NCBI GenBank assembly: GCA_001189165.1
Contig: LFCO01000003.1
Span: 126,984 to 190,983, forward strand
Direction of reading: 5' to 3'
Source: Parcubacteria bacterium C7867-005
Lineage (GTDB): Bacteria > Patescibacteriota > Minisyncoccia > Phycocordibacterales > Zambryskibacteraceae
DNA: 64,000 nt
Shown here: positions 17,724 to 48,982 of the stretch, piece after piece
Position numbering within the stretch: position 1 is the stretch's first letter
Layout of the letters: each line of letters starts with the position of its first letter
Program-made: the position numbers and the translations under genes
The notes under the pieces: model-generated
Told to the model about the DNA's origin: nothing
Seen by the model: only the letters and a program-made list of their open reading frames with translations
The model's database searches: none

Positions 17724-18668
17724 TTGTTTGTATTTTTGCCTGGTTTGGCTTTCGCTAGAACCCAAGGAATAAAGTTTGTCAGAACCCCGATTGTTATCGA
17801 TGAGAAGAATTCTCAAAACATGGCTTTACTTGAAGGGCATTTTAACCCCAGCTCTTTCAATATCGAATCCCCTCACCTCGCTATCGTGGATGGAAGTGCC
17901 CTTTCTTACGAAGGTGATCAAGGTGAAGCTTTTGCTGATGCTGGTAAATCAGGGGGTGGTCAAATTTCTGTGTATATAGTGAGGAAAGGAGACAGTCTGC
18001 CCATTATCGCCAAGATGTTTGGCGTATCTACTAACACCATTGTCTGGGCAAATGATCTAAGAGGTACAAAGATTGTGGAGGGTCAGGAGCTTGTTATTTT
18101 GCCTATTTCTGGGGTAAGGCATACCGTTAAAAAAGGTGATACTCTGAAATCCATCGCCTCCAAGTACAAGGCTGACATGGAAGACATTCTTGCCTTTAAC
18201 GACGTTACTTTAGACAGTAAACTCTCGATTGGTGACATTATCATCGTCCCTGACGGAGAGATAACGTATTCTTCGGGTTCATCTACTTCAGTAAGACCAT
18301 CTTCATCAAGCCTCCCTGCTTACTCTGGGTATTATATGAGACCTATCAGTGGTGGACGAAAATCTCAAGGTATTCACGGGCATAACGGAGTTGATCTTGT
18401 TGCCCCTCTTGGTTCACCAGTCTACGCGGCTGCCGATGGTAAGGTTATAGTCGCTCGAATAGGGGGATATAACGGAGGCTATGGTAGTTATGTGGTCGTC
18501 TCACACGGTAACGGTACACAGACTCTGTATGCTCACTTGAGCTCCGTGTCGGTCGCTGTTGGACAAAGTGTAGATCAAGGTCAGGTTATCGGAGGACTCG
18601 GAAACAGTGGTAAATCTACCGGCGCCCACCTCCACTTCGAAGTTCGCGGCGCGAAGAATCCGTTTTAA
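17724..18668 (+). CDS. LysM-domain peptidoglycan-binding M23-family metallopeptidase
   Basis: Two LysM repeats (YIVRKGDSLPIIAKMFGV; HTVKKGDTLKSIASKY) and the M23 catalytic region (HNGVDL...YAHLSS...GNSGKSTGAHLHFEV). Confidence 0.85.
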   Translation: MFVFLPGLAFARTQGIKFVRTPIVIDEKNSQNMALLEGHFNPSSFNIESPHLAIVDGSALSYEGDQGEAFADAGKSGGGQISVYIVRKGDSLPIIAKMFGVSTNTIVWANDLRGTKIVEGQELVILPISGVRHTVKKGDTLKSIASKYKADMEDILAFNDVTLDSKLSIGDIIIVPDGEITYSSGSSTSVRPSSSSLPAYSGYYMRPISGGRKSQGIHGHNGVDLVAPLGSPVYAAADGKVIVARIGGYNGGYGSYVVVSHGNGTQTLYAHLSSVSVAVGQSVDQGQVIGGLGNSGKSTGAHLHFEVRGAKNPF

Positions 18669-20203
18669 ACGTCGAATTTTTTGGGGCGGTACTCTACTGC
18701 TTCCAGAATATGATCTCGAGTAATTTCTTTGGAATTATCTAGGTCTGCTATGGTTCGAGCGACTTTTAACATACGGTGATAAACACGCGGAGAAAAACCG
18801 AGACGTTCGGCAGCGAGGTTTAATGCGGATCTGGGTTCATCCTCGAGTACAACAAAATTTACCAGATCCCTGGCACTCATTTCAGAATTTCTTGTAAGTC
18901 TTGTTTTACTTTCGATATTTTTTTGGTTAAAACGTGCCCGTTGAATATTGCGCGCATCTTCTACCTTATTTCTAAAAAACATACTCTTTGCTCCCTCTTC
19001 TATCCCGGAGAGTTGTCCAGGAGAAACGCGATCAACTTCAAGCCAAATATCTATACGATCGATTATTGGTCCACTCATCTTTCTTCTGTATCTAGATAAA
19101 GAAGTCGGAGTGCAAATACACGGCTTGCCTTTAAATCCATAATTACCGCATGGGCATGGATTCATCGCAGCGACGAGCATCACATCTGCGGGGAAATGTG
19201 CAGTGCCTTTGGCACGTGCGACAGAAATAACCTTGTCTTCAAGTGGTTGGCGCAAGCTTTCTATAACCCTTCTCTCAAACTCCGGGAACTCATCCATAAA
19301 AAGGACTCCTCGATGTGCGAGAGTTATCTCTCCTGGTTTGGGGGTAGTACCGCCACCGACAAGTGATACATAAGAAGATGTATGGTGGGGAGAACGAAAT
19401 GGTGGTTCGGTTATAAATCCAGAGAGTACTCCAGCCACAGAGTGAATACTCGTAGCCTCTAGCGCTTCCTCAAAAGATAATGGAGGCAGAATGCCGGTGA
19501 AAGCTTTGGCGAGCATGGTTTTCCCTGTGCCCGGTGGTCCATACATGGCTACGTTGTGCCCACCAGCTGCGGCTATAAGTAAACCGCGCTTGGCTCTTTC
19601 CTGTCCTCGGATATCAGAGAAATCAGTTTTGTTTTCTTTGGACTCCCGGGTAAGTTTTGTTTTCTCTGCTTTCGGAATTCTGTCTTCACCAGAAAGATGT
19701 TTTAAAATTTGTTTCAATGAATCGGCCCCGAAGACTTCTATCTCATCAATAATTGCTGCTTCCTCCACATTTTCTTTCGGTACATAAAATTCTTTATACC
19801 CGCGCTCTTTGGCAAATCGGGCGATTGGTAGAATACCCTTGATGGGTCTAATCTGTCCATCAAGTGATAGTTCTCCTAAGAATATTTTTCCCTCCGGATC
19901 AAAATCAATTTCTTCTGATGCAAGAAGATATGAGAGAGCTATAGCCACATCAAAAGAGGGACCTTCCTTTTTCTCTGATGCAGGCGCAAGAGAAATGACA
20001 ACTTTTTGGTTCTTTGTTTTTGGAGAACCCAGTCCTGAATTTTTTATTGCAGCGCTGACCCTGTCTCGAGCTTCTTCTACCGCCTTATCAGGAAGACCGA
20101 CAATAGCAAAAGCATATAAACCACGAGAGATGTCTGTCTCGACTGAAATTGTGCTAACAGTAAGAGCTTGAGTCTGGGCACTATAGACTTTGGAGAAGCT
20201 CAT
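18665..20203 (-). CDS. comM: YifB/ComM-family Mg-chelatase-like AAA+ ATPase
   Basis: N-terminal Lon-like domain, AAA+ Walker A (GPPGTGKTMLA), C-terminal Mg-chelatase domain; 512 aa. Confidence 0.9.
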   Translation of the reverse strand: MSFSKVYSAQTQALTVSTISVETDISRGLYAFAIVGLPDKAVEEARDRVSAAIKNSGLGSPKTKNQKVVISLAPASEKKEGPSFDVAIALSYLLASEEIDFDPEGKIFLGELSLDGQIRPIKGILPIARFAKERGYKEFYVPKENVEEAAIIDEIEVFGADSLKQILKHLSGEDRIPKAEKTKLTRESKENKTDFSDIRGQERAKRGLLIAAAGGHNVAMYGPPGTGKTMLAKAFTGILPPLSFEEALEATSIHSVAGVLSGFITEPPFRSPHHTSSYVSLVGGGTTPKPGEITLAHRGVLFMDEFPEFERRVIESLRQPLEDKVISVARAKGTAHFPADVMLVAAMNPCPCGNYGFKGKPCICTPTSLSRYRRKMSGPIIDRIDIWLEVDRVSPGQLSGIEEGAKSMFFRNKVEDARNIQRARFNQKNIESKTRLTRNSEMSARDLVNFVVLEDEPRSALNLAAERLGFSPRVYHRMLKVARTIADLDNSKEITRDHILEAVEYRPKKFDV

Positions 20204-30310: not shown

Positions 30311-30346
30311 AAATCCCGTTCCGAGCTTCGGAACGGGATTTTTGTT
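30311..30346. terminator. Bidirectional Rho-independent terminator between hup(+) and cca(-)
   Basis: atcccgttccg-agctt-cggaacgggat hairpin flanked by A-run and T-run. Confidence 0.6.
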
Positions 30347-31821
30347 TATCTAACAGCATGCTTACTTTTTATTTTCTCTATCTCTCTTTCATCTTCGGAT
30401 TCATTCTTTGTTCTAGCTTCTTTGCCCAACCGCTTTAGTTCATCTGTTTTCATTTTATATAGTTCCAAAACTTTTTTCCCCAATATTTCTTTGTTGTTCA
30501 ATGATGGATTTTCTAAAACTTCAGACAAGAGTATTTCTAAAATATCACCAACATGAGAGCCGCCTTTAGAATTTGTTAAATTCATGATGTCATTTCCGTT
30601 AACTGCCAATTGCTTCACAGAGATCGGATCCCTCATAACCTCCTCTATCATCGATTTATATTTTCGAAGTCGGTATGGGGCTTCTTTTGGCCTTCCTGTG
30701 CCAATTCTATCTGCTGTTCTGACATCGATTAGGTCCCATATGAGTTCCGGACTGACATTCCTAACCATCCTTCTAACGGCAGATAAAGATATCTCTTCTG
30801 TGTCAGAAAAGAACATATGCCACCTAACTAATTTTGTAACTTTCTCTATTGTCTCTTTAGGAAACTTTAAATCCGTGAGTGCAGACTTGGTTATTCTGGC
30901 CCCCACGACTTCATGCCCGTAGAATGTCCATTGGTTATTCTGCCATTTTTTTGTGTGGGGTTTGGCGATATCATGAAAAAGTGCAGACAGTCTGACATAC
31001 AGAGGAAAATTTTTCTTACTCGCATGTTCCAGAGATCTCAATAGGTGTTCCCAGACGGTATATGCATGAGCCTGGTTTTGTTCCACCCCCACCCCCTTTT
31101 CTAGATCAAGAGAGATATATTTGATTATCCCCAAACGCATCGCCAGATCGAGAGTCGCCGCTGGTGAGTCAGACATTATTATTTTGATGAACTCGTCTCT
31201 GATGCGTTCCTTAGAAATATGTTTGAGGAGATTCACATTATCGCTTATAGCCACAAGCGTTTCGTGTTCTATGACGAATCCCAATGTGCACGACAGCCGT
31301 ACCGCGCGGAGCATCCTCAGCGCGTCTTCATTGAACCTATCGCTCGCCTTCCCCACTGTCTTGATGACTTCTTTGTCTAGATCCGCCTGTCCATCAAAGG
31401 GATCAACTATCTTTTTGTTTTGAATGTCGTATGCAATCGAGTTTATAGTGAAATCTCTACGAGCCAAGTCCTCTTCTATTGTCTTGCCCCACAAGACCCT
31501 GTCTGGTCTACGGTAGTCAGAATAATCAGACTCAATTCTATAAGGAGTAACCTCAACTATCTCCAGGGTTTTATCTTCTTCTCCTTCACTTACTACTCCA
31601 ACTGTCCCGTATTCATTCTCATAAAATGTTTTGGGAAACAAACCGATGATTTGTTCCGGACTAGCTATTGAGGCAATGTCCCAGTCCTTGGGCTTATTCC
31701 CCATCAAGACATCTCGGACACATCCACCGACAAGATAATTTTCGAATCCTGCATCAGAAAGAACCTGAGATATTTCTCTGATTTTTTTGGGGATTCCTAA
31801 TTCTATCTTTGCATTTTTCAT
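30346..31821 (-). CDS. cca: CCA-adding tRNA nucleotidyltransferase (polyA-polymerase head domain plus HD domain)
   Basis: LVGGCVRDVLMG...DWDI nucleotidyltransferase motif; C-terminal HD motif (LFHDIAKP). Confidence 0.85.
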   Translation of the reverse strand: MKNAKIELGIPKKIREISQVLSDAGFENYLVGGCVRDVLMGNKPKDWDIASIASPEQIIGLFPKTFYENEYGTVGVVSEGEEDKTLEIVEVTPYRIESDYSDYRRPDRVLWGKTIEEDLARRDFTINSIAYDIQNKKIVDPFDGQADLDKEVIKTVGKASDRFNEDALRMLRAVRLSCTLGFVIEHETLVAISDNVNLLKHISKERIRDEFIKIIMSDSPAATLDLAMRLGIIKYISLDLEKGVGVEQNQAHAYTVWEHLLRSLEHASKKNFPLYVRLSALFHDIAKPHTKKWQNNQWTFYGHEVVGARITKSALTDLKFPKETIEKVTKLVRWHMFFSDTEEISLSAVRRMVRNVSPELIWDLIDVRTADRIGTGRPKEAPYRLRKYKSMIEEVMRDPISVKQLAVNGNDIMNLTNSKGGSHVGDILEILLSEVLENPSLNNKEILGKKVLELYKMKTDELKRLGKEARTKNESEDEREIEKIKSKHAVR

Positions 31822-31863
31822 AAGTTCTAAGCTTGAAGCTAAAACCTGTAACCCCTATTCTAG

Positions 31864-31935
31864 TGCCCCCAGCAGGAATCGAACCCACATCCCTTGTTCC
31901 GAAGACAAGTACTCTATCCGTTGAGCTATGGGGGC
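31864..31935 (-). tRNA. tRNA, anticodon loop reads cuUCGga (probable tRNA-Arg TCG)
   Basis: Hand-folded cloverleaf: acceptor gccccca/tgggggc, D-arm, anticodon stem cttgt/acaag, T-loop ttcgatt. Isotype assignment tentative. Confidence 0.7.
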
Positions 31936-31977
31936 AGTATTCACATCCTACAGCATAAACAAGCCACAAAAAAGATG

Positions 31978-32048
31978 TGCGGGATGGGGGAATCGAACTC
32001 CCGACCACAGTTTGGAAAACTGTCGTTTTACCACTAAACTAATCCCGC
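31978..32048 (-). tRNA. tRNA-Trp (CCA)
   Basis: Cloverleaf gcgggat...cagtt-ttCCAaa-aactg...ggttcgattcc...atcccgc; anticodon CCA. Confidence 0.85.
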
Positions 32049-32115
32049 AATATCTATAATCTGAGAAACAGACTCAAATCTAGCAAATATAAGCAATTCT
32101 ATCAATTCTACTTTG

Positions 32116-32187
32116 TCGGGGCGCCGAGAATCGAACTCGGACCACATGCTCCCAAAGCAAGTATACTACCACTATACTACGCCCCGT
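32116..32187 (-). tRNA. tRNA-Pro (TGG) (one T-T mismatch in anticodon stem)
   Basis: Acceptor cggggcg/cgccccg, T-arm ccgag-ttcgatt-ctcgg, anticodon loop ttTGGga. Confidence 0.7.
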
Positions 32188-32311
32188 AAGAACGTATCCT
32201 AGCATGGTGAGCCCCTATTTCAAACCCAGGCTCGATTTTTTCATTCGAATACGCTATGATTTTCTTCACGCTTTGAGTTATTCGCGGGCTTGCCTGCCGA
32301 GCGTAACATAT

Positions 32312-32382
32312 GCGGGTATGGTTTAGTGGTAGAATGCGTCCTTGCCAAGGACGAGACGGGAGTTCGATTCTCCCTACCCGCA
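32312..32382 (+). tRNA. tRNA-Gly (GCC)
   Basis: gcgggta...cgtcc-ttGCCaa-ggacg...gggagttcgattctccc...tacccgc; anticodon GCC. Confidence 0.85.
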
Positions 32383-32404
32383 CATTTCGATATCTAGCTT
32401 TCTT

Positions 32405-32809
32405 TTAGATGATTATGTTTTCTAGTATTTCTACTCTGGCTACCCTGCTCTCCATCTGTATTTTGACTGTGACTATGTCCAATTGCCAATCAGAGTCGAC
32501 TCCCTTTTCCAGTAGATAGGTTTGAATCACTCTAGATAGACGTTTAAGTTTCTGTGGATGTACATTCTCCTCTGGCCTGTAAGCACCCATTGTTTCAGGT
32601 GTAACGTTTTGAAGTGTTGCACATGAAACACTTTTAACCTCAATAAATCTAAATACCCTACCTTTTTGAGCAATAATGTCTATTTCTCCCCATTTTCTAA
32701 GGTAATTTCTCTCAATAATCTTAAACCCCTTCTTTTCCAGGAAACTACAGGCAATATTTTCCCCCAGATCTCCAGTTTTTCTTTTTTCAGTTCGATTGTC
32801 CAGTTTCAT
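32405..32809 (-). CDS. YraN-family (UPF0102) endonuclease-like protein
   Basis: GEDIACSFLEKKGFKII..NYLRKWGEIDIIA...RFIEVK pattern of the YraN/UPF0102 family. Confidence 0.7.
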   Translation of the reverse strand: MKLDNRTEKRKTGDLGENIACSFLEKKGFKIIERNYLRKWGEIDIIAQKGRVFRFIEVKSVSCATLQNVTPETMGAYRPEENVHPQKLKRLSRVIQTYLLEKGVDSDWQLDIVTVKIQMESRVARVEILENIII

Positions 32810-33034
32810 GAATAACATTCTATAATAGTTTCACGTGAAATCAAACTATCAAAATATGGCTTAAAATAATGGACAAACAGTATTTGACTTATAAAACTGT
32901 CTTTTTAGTACCCAGTTTCCCCATAGTTATCCACAGATTGAGTCGTTTATGTTGTAATTCTCTTGATATGAAAGGATATTTCCATATTTCGTATGTTAGA
33001 GTCAGATTTCTAATGGACTTGTGAGGGACAAATT

Positions 33035-33320
33035 GAAAACCGCCTCGGGGGCGATCCCGGGCGGTGTGTCCAACTGGTGGACGGTCCAACGAATGGACAG
33101 AAAGATAGTTTCAGAGGAACGAGGTGGGGTAGGCGTACACTGTCGCAAAAAATAAATGAAGATTGGGGACAAGTAGCTTTCACCGGGTCTCGAACTGACC
33201 GAACACGTCTTTCGTGGAAGCAAGCTTGCTTCCGGTACTGATGCTTGAATTGTGCTTTGTTCAAACTCTCTTCAAGCGTCTGCAAACAGTATACTCCCAT
33301 AAGAGACAAAATTTATATTT
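33035..33320 (-). ncRNA. Candidate structured non-coding RNA of unassigned class, ending in an intrinsic terminator
   Basis: About 280-nt intergenic stretch, GC-richer than surrounding DNA, with multiple perfect hairpins (ggaagcaag/cttgcttcc; gtcca-ccagt-tggac; gcttgaa...ttcaagc). On the minus strand it ends in hairpin ccgcccgggatcgcccccgaggcgg followed by ttttcaattt. Overlapping six-frame ORFs lack protein-like composition. Confidence 0.35.
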
Positions 33321-33376
33321 AAAACTGTGGATAACTCTGGCCAATCAAATTATATTTGTCCTTTTGTTATATGGCT

Positions 33377-34147
33377 CTAATTAAAGGTTATTTGGATAGG
33401 GCAGTGATCTGATCCTAGTATTGTGTCGAGAATATGAACAGACTTTATATTTTTTAATATATTTTCACTGCAGAAAAAGTAATCAATTCTCCAACCAACA
33501 TTTCTTTCTCTGGCATAAGTCTTCATGTCCCAATAGGTATACATATCTTTTTTATCTGGATTGAAGTGTCTATAGACATCGGTCCAACCGTGCTCTATGA
33601 GTTTGTCTACCCACGCCCTTTCTATGGGCAGGAATCCTACATGGTTGATATTTTCTTTGGGTCTGGCGATATCTATTTCTCTGTGAGCCACGTTTACATC
33701 ACCACAAAAGATGATATTTGGCTCCGTTTCCCTTAATTTGTCCACAAATTCTAAGAAATGCTCATAAAACTTTAGTTTATACTCTAGGCGCTCAGGGGCA
33801 CCCCCGCCGTTAGGGAAGTAGATGTTCAAAAGCGTGAAATCTTTATATTTAGCCATTATTAGTCGACCTTCTTGGTCCATATCTTCTATGCCCAGATCAT
33901 TTTTCACTTCTAATGGTTTTATCTTGGAGTAGATAGCCACACCACTGTAGCCCTTTTTAATGGTAGGGAAATGAAAATACGAGCAGTAGTCGTCTGGCCT
34001 CCTTAGTTCATCCGAAAGTTGTTCGGGGAGAGACTTTGTTTCCTGTAAGCACAGAATATCTGGCTTTTCTTCCAAAATTCTTTTGAATTGTCCCTTGCGG
34101 TCAACCGCTCTTAATCCATTCACATTCCAAGAGATGATAGTTGTCAT
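33377..34147 (-). CDS. xth: Exodeoxyribonuclease III (AP endonuclease)
   Basis: ISWNVNGLRA...ILCLQETK...SDHCP motifs of the Xth/APE1 family. Confidence 0.9.
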   Translation of the reverse strand: MTTIISWNVNGLRAVDRKGQFKRILEEKPDILCLQETKSLPEQLSDELRRPDDYCSYFHFPTIKKGYSGVAIYSKIKPLEVKNDLGIEDMDQEGRLIMAKYKDFTLLNIYFPNGGGAPERLEYKLKFYEHFLEFVDKLRETEPNIIFCGDVNVAHREIDIARPKENINHVGFLPIERAWVDKLIEHGWTDVYRHFNPDKKDMYTYWDMKTYARERNVGWRIDYFFCSENILKNIKSVHILDTILGSDHCPIQITFN

Positions 34148-36609: not shown

Positions 36610-38364
36610 ATGCACATTGACGAAACTCAGCTAAAGAGTTTTATGCTTGACTCGGGTCTTGTCTCGAAAAAGGAAGTAGAAGACGCGAGTAAAGAAGCCA
36701 AGGAAAAAAATACAACGATCAGTAAGATCCTGGTCACTAAGGGCGCGCTGACTACAGACGATATCCGTCGAATGCAAGCTTATATACTCGGCATTCCCTT
36801 TGTCGACCTAAAGAATCAAAGATTGGACTTCACCGTCCTGTCTCTTATCCCAGAACCGATTGCCAGAAACCACAATATCGTTGCCTTTAGAAAAAGCGAC
36901 GAGTCTTTGGAAGTTGCCATGCTCGATACAGAAGACTTGACCGCTATCGACTTCGTCAAGAAAAAAGTCAGATTGAAAATATTGCCTCGCCTCACAGATG
37001 ATGAGTCGATGAAATGGGCACTTCTTTCTTATCAAAAGAGTTTGAAGGCAGAGTTTGGCGACATAATCCAAAAGGAAGCGGGTGCAATGAGGGCGATAAG
37101 TGATAAACCAGATGGAGAGGATGTAGCACCAGGAGACCTAAAGAAGCTGGCTGAAGATATACCAGTGGTCAGAATTGTGGATACGCTCCTCAAGCACGCG
37201 ATCATACAAGATGCTTCAGATATACATATAGAACCAGAAGAAGCACAGGTTTTGGTCAGATATAGAATAGACGGCATCCTCCACGATGCGATGGTTTTAC
37301 CCAAAAACACTGCTTCAGGCATAACTGCTCGTATAAAAGTGCTTTCTAATCTAAAACTGGATGAAAAAAGGGTACCGCAGGACGGTAGATTCAAGATAGA
37401 TATGAACGGAGAGAAGGTTTCTTTCCGTGTCTCCACTCTCCCTATTTATTATGGTGAAAAGACCGTGATGCGTCTTTTGAGGGAAAATGCTTCAGGCTTC
37501 ACCCTAGAAGGTCTTGGTTTTCATGGATCCGGGCTCGCAGATATCCATAAGGCTTTGAAATATACAACAGGAATGATCCTCACCACCGGTCCAACCGGTT
37601 CTGGTAAGACTACTACCCTCTACACCATGATAGATATTCTTAATACTCCAGATGTGAACATCTCCACTATAGAGGATCCTATCGAATATCAAATGAAGAG
37701 GATAAATCAGACACAGGTTCGCCCTGAAATCGGCTTCACTTTTGCCAACGGCCTCAGGACACTTGTGCGTCAAGATCCGGACATCATCATGGTTGGGGAA
37801 ATTAGAGATAACGAGACCGCCGCTCTATCTATAAACGCGTCTCTTACTGGGCACCTTGTCTTGTCTACCCTTCACACAAATTCTGCCGCAGGGGCCATCC
37901 CTAGATTGCTTGATATGAAAGTTGAACCGTTTCTGTTGGTGTCGACACTCGATATAGTGATTGCTCAAAGATTGATCAGAAAGCTTGGTGAAAAAAAGGA
38001 AAAATACTTCTTAAATAAAGAAGAGATAGACTCTCTGGGTAGTGTCGTTTCTCTTGATCGCATGCTTGATCTATTGAAAAAAGAAGGTTTGATTGAAAAA
38101 AATGCAAAATGGGACAAGATTCCTTTCTATAAACCAAAACCAGGACCAGACGGGGGAGACGGGTATCAGAGCCGTATAGGTATACACGAAGTATTAAAGG
38201 TTACAGAACCTATTCGTGAACTTATCATGAAGGGCGCTACAGCCAAGGCCATAGAAGAACAGGCCAAGTCTGAGGGGATGATGACTATGATAGAAGATGG
38301 TATTTTCAAATCAGTGCAGGGAGTTACTACTATAGAAGAAGTTTTGCGTGTGATATCTGAATAA
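36610..38364 (+). CDS. pilB: Type IV pilus assembly ATPase PilB (GspE family)
   Basis: N-terminal GSPII_E_N-like domain; Walker A (GPTGSGKTTTLY); Asp and His boxes. Confidence 0.9.
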   Translation: MHIDETQLKSFMLDSGLVSKKEVEDASKEAKEKNTTISKILVTKGALTTDDIRRMQAYILGIPFVDLKNQRLDFTVLSLIPEPIARNHNIVAFRKSDESLEVAMLDTEDLTAIDFVKKKVRLKILPRLTDDESMKWALLSYQKSLKAEFGDIIQKEAGAMRAISDKPDGEDVAPGDLKKLAEDIPVVRIVDTLLKHAIIQDASDIHIEPEEAQVLVRYRIDGILHDAMVLPKNTASGITARIKVLSNLKLDEKRVPQDGRFKIDMNGEKVSFRVSTLPIYYGEKTVMRLLRENASGFTLEGLGFHGSGLADIHKALKYTTGMILTTGPTGSGKTTTLYTMIDILNTPDVNISTIEDPIEYQMKRINQTQVRPEIGFTFANGLRTLVRQDPDIIMVGEIRDNETAALSINASLTGHLVLSTLHTNSAAGAIPRLLDMKVEPFLLVSTLDIVIAQRLIRKLGEKKEKYFLNKEEIDSLGSVVSLDRMLDLLKKEGLIEKNAKWDKIPFYKPKPGPDGGDGYQSRIGIHEVLKVTEPIRELIMKGATAKAIEEQAKSEGMMTMIEDGIFKSVQGVTTIEEVLRVISE

Positions 38365-38365
38365 A

Positions 38366-39580
38366 ATGACAAAGTATCTTTATAGCGCAAAAGATAAAGA
38401 AGGGAATATCTATGAAAGTACACATGAGGCACCAACTCGTGTTGAGTTATATACATTTATCAGAGATGAAGGAGGAACTGTCATTTCAGTAAAAGAATCC
38501 AAATCTGGTATATCAGTTGATTCATTTTTTGCTGGAATCTTTGGAAATATAAAAACTCACGACAAAATCCTACTTGCCAGAAACCTGGCTTCGATGGTTA
38601 AGGCTGGACTCTCTGTCACCAGAGCGCTGGGTGTCATGGAGAAGCAGACCAAAAAGAAAAAATTAAAAATCCTTTTGAGAGATCTGACTGCCGATGTTAG
38701 CCATGGTGAACCACTCTCTGAAGCAATGAAAAAACGCCCACAGGTTTTTTCTCAACTTTTTATTTCTATGGTCAGAGCAGGGGAGGAGTCTGGTAATATC
38801 GCTAACTCGCTCGAGATAGTCGCTGGTCAGATGGACAAGTCATTTGCTTTAGTCAAAAAGGTGAGAGGTGCCCTTATTTACCCCGCAGTCGTTATTTCTG
38901 CGATGGTCCTCATAGCGATTCTGATGCTTATTTATATGGTACCGACGCTGACAGCAACATTTGAGGGATTAGGAGTGAAGCTACCCGTCTCTACTAGGGT
39001 TATCATCGCATCGAGTGATTTTTTGGTTAACCATACACTCATTGTTTTTCTTGGAATTATCGCCCTCGTTATTTCTGCGATCACTTTGTTTAAAAGTGCT
39101 TTTGGTCAGAAAGTCATGGACCATGTAACTATCAGGATTCCGGTCATAGGAGCGATTGCCAAGGAGGTCCAGAGTGCGCGAACTGCTCGAACTTTATCAT
39201 CTCTGCTTTCCTCGGGAGTTGATATAGTCGTTGCCCTTGGGGTAACCATAGATGTTGTCCAAAATAGTTTATATAAAAAAATACTAAAGAAAGCTCGGAC
39301 AGCCATAGAAAAAGGGGAACCCATGTCTCTAGTTTTTATTCAAAGTGAAAATCTTTACCCAACATTTGTCGGTGAAATGATCGCGGTGGGCGAGGAAACT
39401 GGCAAGATTTCAGAAATGTTGCTTGGTGTGGCTACTTACTATGAAAATGAGGTTGAAGAAAAGACCAAAGATCTCTCAACCATCATCGAACCTGTTCTCA
39501 TGATCGTGATTGGTATCGGGGTGGGTATTTTTGCCATATCCATGCTTGCACCAACATATTCATTGGTCGACAACATCTAA
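38366..39580 (+). CDS. pilC: Type IV pilus platform protein PilC (GspF family)
   Basis: Two GspF repeats with polytopic membrane segments. Confidence 0.9.
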   Translation: MTKYLYSAKDKEGNIYESTHEAPTRVELYTFIRDEGGTVISVKESKSGISVDSFFAGIFGNIKTHDKILLARNLASMVKAGLSVTRALGVMEKQTKKKKLKILLRDLTADVSHGEPLSEAMKKRPQVFSQLFISMVRAGEESGNIANSLEIVAGQMDKSFALVKKVRGALIYPAVVISAMVLIAILMLIYMVPTLTATFEGLGVKLPVSTRVIIASSDFLVNHTLIVFLGIIALVISAITLFKSAFGQKVMDHVTIRIPVIGAIAKEVQSARTARTLSSLLSSGVDIVVALGVTIDVVQNSLYKKILKKARTAIEKGEPMSLVFIQSENLYPTFVGEMIAVGEETGKISEMLLGVATYYENEVEEKTKDLSTIIEPVLMIVIGIGVGIFAISMLAPTYSLVDNI

Positions 39581-47508: not shown

Positions 47509-48982
47509 AATAATAAGTAAGATAGAAAATACCCGGCACTCGGGTATTTTTGTTTTCTTGTGGAGTTTCATTATTGCCGTACTCTGTTCTTCTTTTATAA
47601 ATATCCTACCGATAATAAGTCTATGTCTGATGACCGTCGGGTTTTTAGGTTTTTTGTTTTTTAAATTTATAAAGATAGAAGCAAATATTTTAATCAGCTT
47701 GTTATTCCTAGTTATCTTCTCATTCGGTTTCGGAGCTCTGCGTTTTGAGATAAAAGATTATCATTTGTTGGATAAGAAATTCGAAGCATCATTAGAATCA
47801 AAAATAGAATTAGATGGCTTGGTTATAAGCGAGGTTGAAACCAGAGAGAGTGGCTCGAGATTTGTCTTAGATGTAGATGGACAGAAGATTTTGGTCAGCG
47901 CCAGAGATTTCTCTAATACAGAATACGGAGATCGGGTAGCGGTTACTGGCAAGCTCCAAAAGCCGGGGATTATAGAGAGTGATACGGGTAGAGACTTCGA
48001 CTACGGTGCCTATTTATCCAAGGATGATATTTATTACACCATGAGTTTCGCAGAGGTAGAGACCCTCTCCTCTGGTCACGGTAATTTTTTAAAATCTTTC
48101 CTCATCAAGATAAAAACAAAGTTCACAGACAGGATGAATACAATCTTGCCAGAACCAGAATCATCTTTACTTGCAGGTCTACTTGTCTCTGGTAAGCAGG
48201 CTCTACCCAAAAGCACACTCGAAGAATTTAAGAGAGCGGGGATAGTGCACATAGTCGTGCTCTCTGGTTATAACGTCACCATTATCGCAGAGTTTTTCCG
48301 CAAAATGTTTGGTTTGTTGTCTGTCCGATTTGCTTTGCCAGCATCAGTTGTTGGTATTGTCCTATTCACACTACTTACTGGTGCATCTGCTACCGTAGTC
48401 AGGGCGTCCATTATGGTGCTGATTGTATTGTTCAGTAAATCTCTTGGACGGACTTATTCTGTTGGACGGGCATTGCTTTTGGCCGGAGTGCTCATGGTTT
48501 TCCATAACCCAAAAATTTTGGTTTTTGATCCATCTTTCGAACTTTCTTTTATTGCTGTCCTCGCACTTGCATACATGAGCTCCTTAGCCGAAAAGTATCT
48601 CGGCAGTATTCCTCTGCAGTGGGGCATGAGGAGTATGTTGGCAACTATTATCAGCACTCAGGTTGCAGTTTTGCCATACCTGCTTTACTCGATGGGGAGT
48701 TTTTCTATGGTGTCTGTGTTCTCAAATACCCTGATCCTATTGTTCATACCTGTTACAATGCTCATTGGCTTTGCGGCTGTATCTCTGTCGTTTGTGGGTT
48801 TTTATCTGGCAATGCCATTTTCGTATTGCGCGCATCTCCTCCTAGAGTACATACTCTCGGTTGCTCACTATCTAGGTAATTTATCTTTTGCCAGTATCTC
48901 TGTGCCGATTTTCCCTTGGTGGTTAGCTGTTTTTATTTATTTAGTATTGATAGGTTTTGTTTATAATAGATCCAAGACTTAA
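47501..48982 (+). CDS. comEC: ComEC/Rec2-family DNA internalisation channel (DUF4131 plus Competence domain), lacking the C-terminal MBL domain
   Basis: Polytopic membrane protein with OB-like DUF4131 region and the Competence-domain motif (LLAGLLVSGKQALPKSTLEEFKRAGIVHIVVLSGYNV). Confidence 0.8.
   Translation: MDKIISKIENTRHSGIFVFLWSFIIAVLCSSFINILPIISLCLMTVGFLGFLFFKFIKIEANILISLLFLVIFSFGFGALRFEIKDYHLLDKKFEASLESKIELDGLVISEVETRESGSRFVLDVDGQKILVSARDFSNTEYGDRVAVTGKLQKPGIIESDTGRDFDYGAYLSKDDIYYTMSFAEVETLSSGHGNFLKSFLIKIKTKFTDRMNTILPEPESSLLAGLLVSGKQALPKSTLEEFKRAGIVHIVVLSGYNVTIIAEFFRKMFGLLSVRFALPASVVGIVLFTLLTGASATVVRASIMVLIVLFSKSLGRTYSVGRALLLAGVLMVFHNPKILVFDPSFELSFIAVLALAYMSSLAEKYLGSIPLQWGMRSMLATIISTQVAVLPYLLYSMGSFSMVSVFSNTLILLFIPVTMLIGFAAVSLSFVGFYLAMPFSYCAHLLLEYILSVAHYLGNLSFASISVPIFPWWLAVFIYLVLIGFVYNRSKT

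Follow-up and report, generated by a model that had tools for sequence, protein, structure and literature searches.

What is the GC-rich, non-coding stretch that lies between xth and yraN in the genome of Parcubacteria bacterium C7867-005? The locus is situated in a 64-kb window of contig LFCO01000003.1, the window being the whole stretch of DNA that was analysed, and all coordinates given here are those of the window unless a retrieved locus (L followed by a number) is named. From its letters the locus had been described earlier (the original prediction) as an unassigned, structured RNA-like element with its own terminator, for which RNase P RNA, signal recognition particle (SRP) RNA, 6S RNA, transfer-messenger RNA (tmRNA) and a novel RNA came into consideration. 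The evidence collected in our study favours the novel RNA and supports a structured, minus-strand non-coding RNA (ncRNA) with its own predicted terminator. From sequence comparison we consider it probable (about 0.7) that the locus encodes a new structured RNA restricted to one lineage, and that the gene has its own terminator and its own, probably DnaA-responsive, promoter. The RNA very probably matches no described RNA family.

The predicted RNA gene is located on the minus strand, as are xth and yraN. It covers ~248 nt (33034-33281) from the A of a conserved AGACGC block, placed by the spacing of a -10 hexamer, to the U-run of the terminator, and its promoter region reaches 33334, or 33364 when an outer inverted motif is counted. 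The length of ~250 nt in the window compares with 230-340 nt among the relatives, the smallest family member having 231 nt with the terminator counted. The placement between the two genes has been borne out: yraN, encoding a UPF0102 protein, is found at 32405-32818 (minus strand), and xth at 33377-34147 (minus strand), its Exo_endo_phos product being 100% identical to exodeoxyribonuclease III of Parcubacteria bacterium C7867-005. The locus was also rightly described as richer in GC than its surroundings, with 0.46-0.57 over 33000-33300 as against 0.27-0.37 in the adjacent intergenic DNA, and as containing several hairpins. These include a perfect 18-nt palindrome (33216-33233), a pair of 10-nt arms (33240-49/33271-80) and a near-identical pair GUCCA-N5-UGGAC (33068-82 and 33084-98). 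The folding energy of the minus strand is -88.6 kcal/mol, whereas 200 dinucleotide shuffles gave -71.0 +/- 4.3 kcal/mol (z = -4.08) and none of them (0/200) folds as well; for the plus strand z is -2.2.

Distribution of the RNA family

Altogether 18 distinct sequences of the family have been collected, from Paceibacteria (Zambryskibacteria-like) contigs and between xth and yraN. A search anchored on xth yielded 52 loci from species-representative genomes; in 6 of them a homologue 230-340 nt long is present on the strand of xth, and yraN and a tRNA cluster come after it. These six carriers are labelled as Paceibacterota, Zambryskibacteria, 'Patescibacteria group' and, for two metagenome-assembled genomes labelled automatically, Saccharibacteria. 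Among the Xth relatives with at least 70% identity, the RNA was present in all those with readable DNA (10/10), and two further relatives of this group, with unreadable DNA, have the same 730-750-nt gap between xth and the UPF0102 gene.

The search anchored on yraN gave 80 metagenomic loci, of which 79 are without the RNA and one, L053, has a divergent copy at L053:71-335. This locus also carries the closest YraN. Full-length homology to the 17 other sequences was found with nhmmer E values of 1e-18 to 1e-45, the value for L053 being 0.006. The covariance model of the core (see below) does not detect the L053 member; as the latter is seen by the sequence profile, the family may be wider than the model detects. 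When the profile was applied to the window, one copy was found (E = 9e-30) and none elsewhere in it. The family is a feature of one Paceibacteria clade, in which xth and yraN are neighbouring genes.

Core fold and covariation

The core of the RNA is formed by the long-range closing helices Ha and Hb, a short helix Hc and a long interrupted arm Hf-He-Hd of ~20 bp. In the window, the 5' strands of the closing helices occupy 33198-33213 (Ha, GAAAGA, 33213-33208; Hb, UUCGG, 33203-33199) and their 3' strands 33100-33114 (Hb, CUGAA, 33114-33110; Ha, UCUUUC, 33105-33100), both on the minus strand. The arm lies between them at 33133-33186 (minus strand) and is capped by a conserved loop at 33167-33145, reading CCCAAUCUUCAUUUAUUUUUUGC. 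RNAalifold gives the same core on three independent alignments, for which an E-INS-i alignment of 14 members, two subgroup alignments and a MAFFT alignment (A2) were used as inputs.

Compensatory changes, by which a structured RNA is recognized, are present in the family; the original prediction had proposed to look for covariation in the relatives, and it has been found there. In A2, a MAFFT alignment of 14 members that was made from sequence alone and fitted to no structure, the 33 pairs of the fold are 83.3% paired, a figure that falls to 41-50% if the 3' partner is shifted by 1-3 columns. Moreover, 23 pairs are changed on both sides (7-17 in the slid controls), the covariation score is 0.394 (at most 0.168 in the controls) and none of 500 shuffles reaches the observed values. 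A covariance model was then seeded with 9 sequences that align consistently, a choice made because the 14-member core-only MAFFT alignment had misaligned the 3' side of the loop. The model recovers 8 non-seed members with E values of 7e-15 to 5e-4, and in 97 sources totalling 555 kb it gave nothing convincing beyond the members. Weak matches to it at 48106-48173 (minus strand) of the window and at L035:5376-5491(-), with 14.4-14.6 bits and E ~0.6, were treated as chance. In the model alignment of 17 distinct members, 82.5% of the cells are paired as against 42-53% in slid controls, changes on both sides are seen in 26 of the 31 pairs, and the covariation score of 0.479 compares with at most 0.181 in the controls.

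The best-supported pairs are located in the arm. One pair of Hd is GC in 7, CG in 5 and UA in 4 members with 0 unpaired cells, and a second is GC in 7 and AU in 6 with at most 1 unpaired; in He, one pair is AU in 8, GC in 5 and GU in 3 members and another is GC in 8 and AU in 7. Ha covaries from GGAAG:CUUCC to GAAAGA:UCUUUC, GAGGA:UCCUC and GGAGG:CCUCC. Helix Hb, which reads UUCUGG:CUGGAA in most relatives, contains tandem wobbles that are near-invariant among the sequences with letters (U·G in 15/16, G·U in 16/16), whereas in the window copy one U·G pair of Hb has been lost on both strands. The fold is also specific to one strand: 82.5% of the cells are paired on the RNA strand and 71.4% on its complement, 87 cells are G·U, and U-runs follow the last hairpin on the RNA strand only.

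A local hairpin CCGGAA-N4-UUCUGG was considered as the conserved fold and rejected, its pairing over the family (57.6%) being equal to that of shuffles with no excess covariation. Ha and Hb would contribute their 5' strands to hairpins of this type, 7-11 bp long, at L003:4924-4950, L048:1158-1185, L050:5006-5040 and L143:3038-3060, and in L141, L147 and L149 the Hb strand is able to pair with a downstream GACCAG. These alternative pairings of Ha and Hb may be lineage-specific conformers or coincidence. A pseudoknot between the 5' leader and the loop (GCAGA with UUUGC) was likewise rejected, since by eye it is not kept in L003, L002 and L050.

Predicted promoter and terminator

Fifteen upstream regions were compared after alignment on the conserved 5' block (C/U)AGACGC, and the same order of elements was found in all of them (15/15): a DnaA box, 31-33 nt containing TTGTCC(TTTA), a -10 hexamer TAnnnT, 6-7 nt, and AGACGC. 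In the window the perfect DnaA box TTATCCACA is located at 33326-33334, a TTGTCT box in the place of TTGTCC(TTTA) at 33304-33309, and the -10 hexamer TATACT at 33288-33293, all on the minus strand. The box at the promoter position reads TTATCCACA in 10/15, TTATCCCCA in 4/15 and TTGTCCACA in 1/15 of the regions. The TTGTCC box stands 9-10 nt upstream of the -10 hexamer in 15/15, and the hexamer itself is TATAAT or TATACT in the majority of members.

Upstream of the DnaA box, at a distance of ~8-15 nt, lies the outer motif AAAGGACA (33357-33364, minus strand), an inverted copy of TGTCCTTT that forms the outer arm of the inverted repeat around the promoter region. It is present at the matching position in 11/15 regions (the window, L150, L151, L141, L147, L149, L003, L050, L148, L053 and L001, the last with the variant AGAGACA) and was not seen in the stretch shown of L048, L002, L049 and L143. 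The inverted pair AAAGGACA ... TGTCCTTT flanks the upstream DnaA box. A motif TGTCC(T/A)TT occurs 4-5 times in the intergenic region and its homologues (33357-33364, 33304-33309, 33022-33032 and 32867-32877 in the window) and may be a binding site for some protein. TTGTCC as a general -35-like element was rejected: TTGTC(C/T)-N8-11-TAnnnT is found 13 times in the window, for which shuffles give a mean of 6.0 and a maximum of 13, and the majority of the matches are not in front of genes.

A TATAAT-like hexamer is also found 6-7 nt ahead of the start codon in many protein genes of the window, and GGAG, GAGG or AGGA is found upstream of only 4 of the 56 genes. From this, leaderless mRNAs appear to be common in the host organism. 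Based on the equal -10 spacing in these protein genes, the start of the RNA has been placed at about A33281.

At the other end, the GC-rich stem-loop with T-run that had been noticed on the minus strand is confirmed, with CCGCCCGGGAUCGCCCCCGAGGCGG at 33064-33040 followed by UUUUCAAUUU at 33039-33030. This intrinsic terminator-like element (33030-33064, minus strand) has been read from the sequence, and a GC-rich hairpin followed by a U-run stands at the end of 17/17 homologues.

Transcription units controlled by DnaA, or adjacent to oriC, are known from Escherichia coli, such as mioC and gidA (for gidAB-parAB see also PMC13438810). Like such units, the xth-yraN locus has a perfect DnaA box at a fixed position upstream of its predicted promoter and a cluster of DnaA boxes nearby; unlike them, its product is a structured RNA and not a protein.

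Conserved loop, outer hairpins and possible pairing targets

The arm loop is 16-23 nt long and pyrimidine-rich in all members, with the consensus C-N-C-A-(A/C)-Y-Y-U-U-Y-A-U-U-U. No other unpaired portion of the RNA is as conserved, and the loop is the obvious candidate surface for recognition. Where stem and loop meet, the sequence is UC-CNCA(A/C) (33168-33172 plus the loop in the window), and in L143 (3076-3090) and L157 it is UCCACAA, resembling the TCCACA core of a DnaA box. This likeness is probably a coincidence, because the position that varies here is the conserved one in real boxes.

On the 5' side of the core two hairpins are found on the minus strand. P1 (33240-33280) consists of GCUUGAA...UUCAAGC and an inner stem; its base stem pairs in every member despite differing sequence, and an apical C(C/A)UCU loop is carried on covarying stems by 9/15 members, the window copy being without it. 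P2 (33216-33233) is GGAAGCA-AGCU-UGCUUCC, and in the relatives its place is taken by hairpins of other sequence. On the 3' side, two similar hairpins GUCCA-N5-UGGAC (33068-33098, minus strand) are present in the window, a variable region with 0-3 hairpins before the terminator among the members.

The C(C/A)UCU loop together with the invariant arm loop gives the RNA two pyrimidine-rich loops, and these could be taken as the seed regions of a base-pairing small RNA (sRNA) directed to purine-rich sites in mRNAs; its own predicted promoter and terminator are typical of an sRNA acting in trans. We consider this explanation very unlikely. Only 4/56 genes have a Shine-Dalgarno (SD)-like motif, leaving few anti-SD targets, and typical seed-pairing sRNAs have neither this size nor a covarying fold of several helices. 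The complement of the loop is not above chance in the window, and duplexes of the loop with the yraN region are no better than those of shuffled loops (z -2.1 to +1.4), their best sites not being conserved. An anti-SD sRNA in particular was tried and rejected in view of the scarce SD-like motifs, the leaderless-looking starts and the lack of excess complement. C-rich loops are known from RNAIII and the Rsa sRNAs of Staphylococcus aureus. The xth-yraN RNA resembles these in its multi-hairpin build, its conserved pyrimidine-rich apical loops and its own predicted promoter and terminator, and differs in that its host is almost without SD sequences, no conserved target was found and there is no homology.

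Comparison with known RNA families

A search of the whole window with Rfam 15 at gathering thresholds has shown only four tRNAs (31864-32383). A permissive search of 32820-33400 (E<=10) returned three chance-level matches to microRNA (miRNA) and small nucleolar RNA (snoRNA) families. The homologous RNAs of L003 and L049, searched likewise at E<=10 with matches listed down to 9 bits, again gave chance-level miRNA/snoRNA matches only. In 15 homologous loci searched at E<=0.1-1 no RNase P, SRP, 6S or tmRNA was found. The universal RNAs that had been named as candidates are hence without a match of Rfam 15 in 16 members, and the RNA of these members brings no other Rfam 15 family close to its gathering threshold. 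ARAGORN, applied to 31500-34000, found four tRNAs and no tmRNA.

The signature motifs of these RNAs were also looked for. Domain IV (helix 8) of SRP RNA is marked by a GNAR tetraloop and conserved nucleotides of a symmetric loop, and tmRNA by a tRNA-like domain (T-arm, acceptor stem, CCA end) together with a tag reading frame. The conserved regions CR-I (GAGGAAAGUCC) and CR-V (ACAGAAnnCGGCUUA) of RNase P RNA form the P4 pseudoknot. Both were absent from 15 members in a fuzzy search with 2-3 mismatches, as were the SRP domain IV block (with at most 4 mismatches) and the T-arm motif of tmRNA in the same members. It had been stated that conserved blocks of RNase P and tmRNA could not be matched by eye, and the fuzzy search agrees with this. 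The segment cagtaccggaagcaagc, in which a loose resemblance to SRP domain IV had been seen, turned out to be one side of the 7-bp P2 hairpin GGAAGCA/UGCUUCC, which covaries freely in the relatives. Further, rnpA, which had been reported from the window, was not confirmed there by a crude motif search; this has no bearing on the result for the RNA.

In no consensus fold do the 5' and 3' ends pair with each other, the 5' end entering a local hairpin instead, so that there is neither a P1 of RNase P nor a closing stem of 6S RNA. The rod of 6S RNA, made of closing stem, central bubble and terminal stem, was not found; in its place the consensus fold has a domain of hairpins on the 5' side, the closed core with its arm, and further hairpins on the 3' side. 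With 6S and Ms1-type RNAs the xth-yraN RNA shares a length of a few hundred nt, its non-coding nature, the appearance of an abundant RNA expressed independently and the difficulty of recognition by sequence. In contrast to 6S RNA, it has no end-paired rod or central bubble and its conserved unpaired element is a hairpin loop.

A very diverged universal RNA that Rfam has missed is the alternative that these results address, 6S-like RNA being the least excluded form of it and RNase P RNA the most tempting one. Diverged RNase P RNAs of bacteria of the candidate phyla radiation (CPR) were missed at standard cut-offs in 10/35 circular genomes (Lui et al. 2021, PMC8172020). The xth-yraN RNA is like these in having a size near the smallest forms, a GC content like that of stable RNAs and adjoining tRNA genes, with the gene of the CCA-adding enzyme also close by, and its conserved block (G/A)GAA(A/G)(G/A)C faintly recalls CR-I, GGAAAGUC. 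Lowering the threshold for RF00010, however, brought back all of the diverged forms, in which many conserved features are retained (PMC8172020), whereas in three members of the present family no model of RNase P, 6S, SRP or tmRNA appeared among matches of 9-15 bits, neither RF00010 nor RF00011 being seen at ~9-15 bits. Moreover, CR-I and CR-V as well as the long-range P1/P4 architecture are lacking, the ends are unpaired, and the smallest member has 231 nt. The GGAAG block is helical, pairing with CUUCC and covarying, whereas the equivalent in J3/4 of RNase P is single-stranded. A diverged universal RNA is for these reasons regarded as very improbable.

Orphan structured ncRNAs of bacteria, such as the raiA motif RNA, ROOL, GOLLD, OLE and HEARO, form another group for comparison. 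They have been found by comparative analysis of GC-rich intergenic regions, an approach also followed in PMC11109978 and PMC8632094. The present RNA is similar to them as a GC-rich island in AT-rich intergenic DNA with a covarying multi-helix fold, non-coding and restricted to a lineage, the function of which is not deducible from sequence. It differs in its lack of a sequence or structure match to them, its host phylum (Patescibacteria), its fixed gene context and the DnaA box in its promoter. Neither PMC11109978 nor PMC8632094 mentions xth, yraN, DnaA or CPR.

Coding potential and mobility

Several open reading frames (ORFs) overlap the locus, and they had been judged to be non-coding. This judgement holds, as strand, frame and sequence of the ORFs differ between the homologues and no ORF is conserved among 15 members; automatic annotation of the region in relatives places genes on one strand or the other, or none at all. 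The ORFs of 64-99 aa and two inverted repeats that bracket the region (one of 19 nt at 32921-39/33322-40 and a second at 32868-87/33345-64) could otherwise point to a small protein gene, a remnant, or an element like a miniature inverted-repeat transposable element (MITE) bounded by the 19-nt repeat. Such an origin is extremely improbable. The 19-nt repeat consists of DnaA boxes, which are conserved at fixed positions of promoter and array, and the window holds a single copy of the element. Blastn against phage records gave no match to the RNA, and the conserved 16-nt block had 8 chance matches in viral contigs, none of them homologous. Synteny and covariation, on the other hand, are kept, and conservation together with covariation excludes the pseudogene remnant; the missing Rfam match at the xth-yraN locus does not make it one.

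DnaA boxes, yraN and the question of an origin

The perfect box TTATCCACA occurs only twice in 64 kb, and the two copies flank the RNA gene in inverted orientation. The upstream copy is part of the predicted promoter of the RNA. The downstream copy is the first of three abutting DnaA-box-like 9-mers, which form an array beyond the terminator (32898-32935, minus strand), reading TGTGGATAA-cta-TGGGGAAA-c-TGGGTAC...AAAGACA. In the window the array precedes the first ATG in frame of yraN by ~100 nt, whereas the retrieved loci have it at ~-200; a palindrome (G/A)TTTCACGTGAAAC follows at 32828-32841, just ahead of yraN.

A similar module has been observed in Paceibacteria, in which the array TGTGGATAA-n-TGTGGAnA-TGTGTAnTAAAAGACA is followed by the 14-bp palindrome GTTTCACGTGAAAC at ~-50; examples are L054:2290-2330/2452, L055:2305/2448, L056:2061/2202 and L064:2298/2455. 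Array and palindrome are found 110-190 nt apart in at least 25/80 yraN loci without the RNA, so the module belongs to yraN or to the region and not to the RNA gene. It may be oriC, or an operator of yraN of a DnaA or competence type.

Gene orientation in the window is mostly minus at 1.8-22 kb and 30.3-34.1 kb and mostly plus from 34.2 kb. A broad minimum of the cumulative GC skew lies at 22-38 kb. In a regression the skew is explained by gene orientation, with no effect of the side of the putative origin; it hence gives no independent support for an origin at the locus. Walker A and signature motifs of DnaA, and motifs of RpmH, were looked for in six-frame translations of the window and none was found.

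The layout of boxes bears on a further explanation, in which the stretch is a cis element: a 3' untranslated region of xth, a leader or attenuator of yraN, or a site whose transcription modulates the origin or DnaA array through an R-loop, priming or activation of transcription. In favour of this, every copy of the RNA lies between xth and yraN, perfect inverted DnaA boxes flank it, the array and AT-rich DNA follow its terminator, and gene orientation switches near the locus. Yet a conserved promoter layout stands between the stop codon of xth and the RNA, and the terminator and 200-300 nt with yraN's own module part the RNA from yraN. Covariation of several helices would be unexpected if only the act of transcription mattered, and as regards an origin the window offers neither support from the skew nor a dnaA signature. 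We therefore hold a cis element to be unlikely.

Proposed mode of action

For the preferred reading as a new RNA gene, minus-strand transcription would proceed from TATACT (33293-33288), starting at about A33281 and stopping at 33064-33030. The transcript is predicted to fold into a 5' domain (P1 and P2), the core and the variable 3' hairpins. The DnaA box at its fixed upstream distance (centre ~-48) would make the transcription respond to DnaA, that is, to the replication status, and the mature RNA may act in trans as a scaffold or ligand of protein; its putative recognition surfaces are the helix with the tandem G·U pairs and the invariant loop. It probably does not act via pairing with ribosome-binding sites. 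Scarce SD sequences, the lack of excess complement and duplexes at the level of shuffled loops make a protein partner appear likelier than pairing with mRNA.

Several points weigh against this reading and its parts. All members of the family found come from a single clade and a single genomic context. The difference from the slid controls is inflated, because the fold was derived from the same sequences; the members are related, so that cell counts are not independent events, and an alignment fitted to the model favours the model. Ha is only ~75% paired, its outermost pair being mostly unpaired, and with default settings RNAalifold gives on the model-fitted alignment the arm only (9 pairs, 7 of them compensated). 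A scan for consensus promoters and terminators flagged neither the promoter nor the terminator of the RNA; the latter was missed by the simple scan because its stem has a bulge. Start and end of the RNA are taken from sequence signals, and the locus may be transcribed by read-through from xth. Alternatively, the role of the DnaA boxes may be to mark oriC or to control yraN, and DnaA control and protein binding are both inferred.

A more specific form of the proposal is that of an origin-associated or DnaA-regulon RNA of a CPR lineage, its synthesis being set by DnaA occupancy of the phased box and the RNA in turn acting on replication initiation or on the machinery of DNA uptake and recombination encoded nearby (YraN/ComM, Xth), for example by binding one of these proteins. 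We regard it as unlikely. If it were true, organisms with a minimal set of regulators would have a new class of RNA by which genome maintenance is tied to the replication status.

CPR bacteria constitute a large share of bacterial diversity and have tiny genomes with very few known regulators. To our knowledge, almost nothing is known of their ncRNAs beyond the universal ones. In the searchable literature on ncRNAs of CPR/Patescibacteria, on oriC and on the gene context, no description of an xth-yraN RNA was found. If it is a new RNA gene, as we propose, the locus would be among the first described cases of a lineage-specific structured RNA in Paceibacteria and a rare one of an RNA gene wired to the replication initiator. 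The defined (predicted) ends, the invariant loop, the tandem G·U helix and the covariance model can serve as handles for experimental studies.

Gene neighbourhood

According to a recent report, YraN is the endonuclease that acts with the ComM helicase to resolve the D-loop of transformation (bioRxiv 10.1101/2024.02.06.579203). In the window, a ComM-like protein of the Mg-chelatase family is encoded at 18665-20203 (minus strand), and ATPase and platform proteins of the type II/IV secretion or type IV pilus type at 36610-39580 (plus strand). With xth, yraN, the comM-like gene and the pilus-type genes around it, the RNA lies within a neighbourhood of DNA uptake and repair. An IS200/IS605-type Y1 transposase is found in one retrieved locus (L156:43-741) ~0.8 kb upstream of xth, with no evident link to the RNA. 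After yraN, the window carries the gene of the CCA-adding enzyme and four tRNA genes (30346-32383), of which Arg-TCG, Gly-TCC and Pro-TGG are on the minus strand and Gly-GCC is on the plus strand. The order xth, RNA, yraN and tRNAs (and cca) recurs among many relatives.

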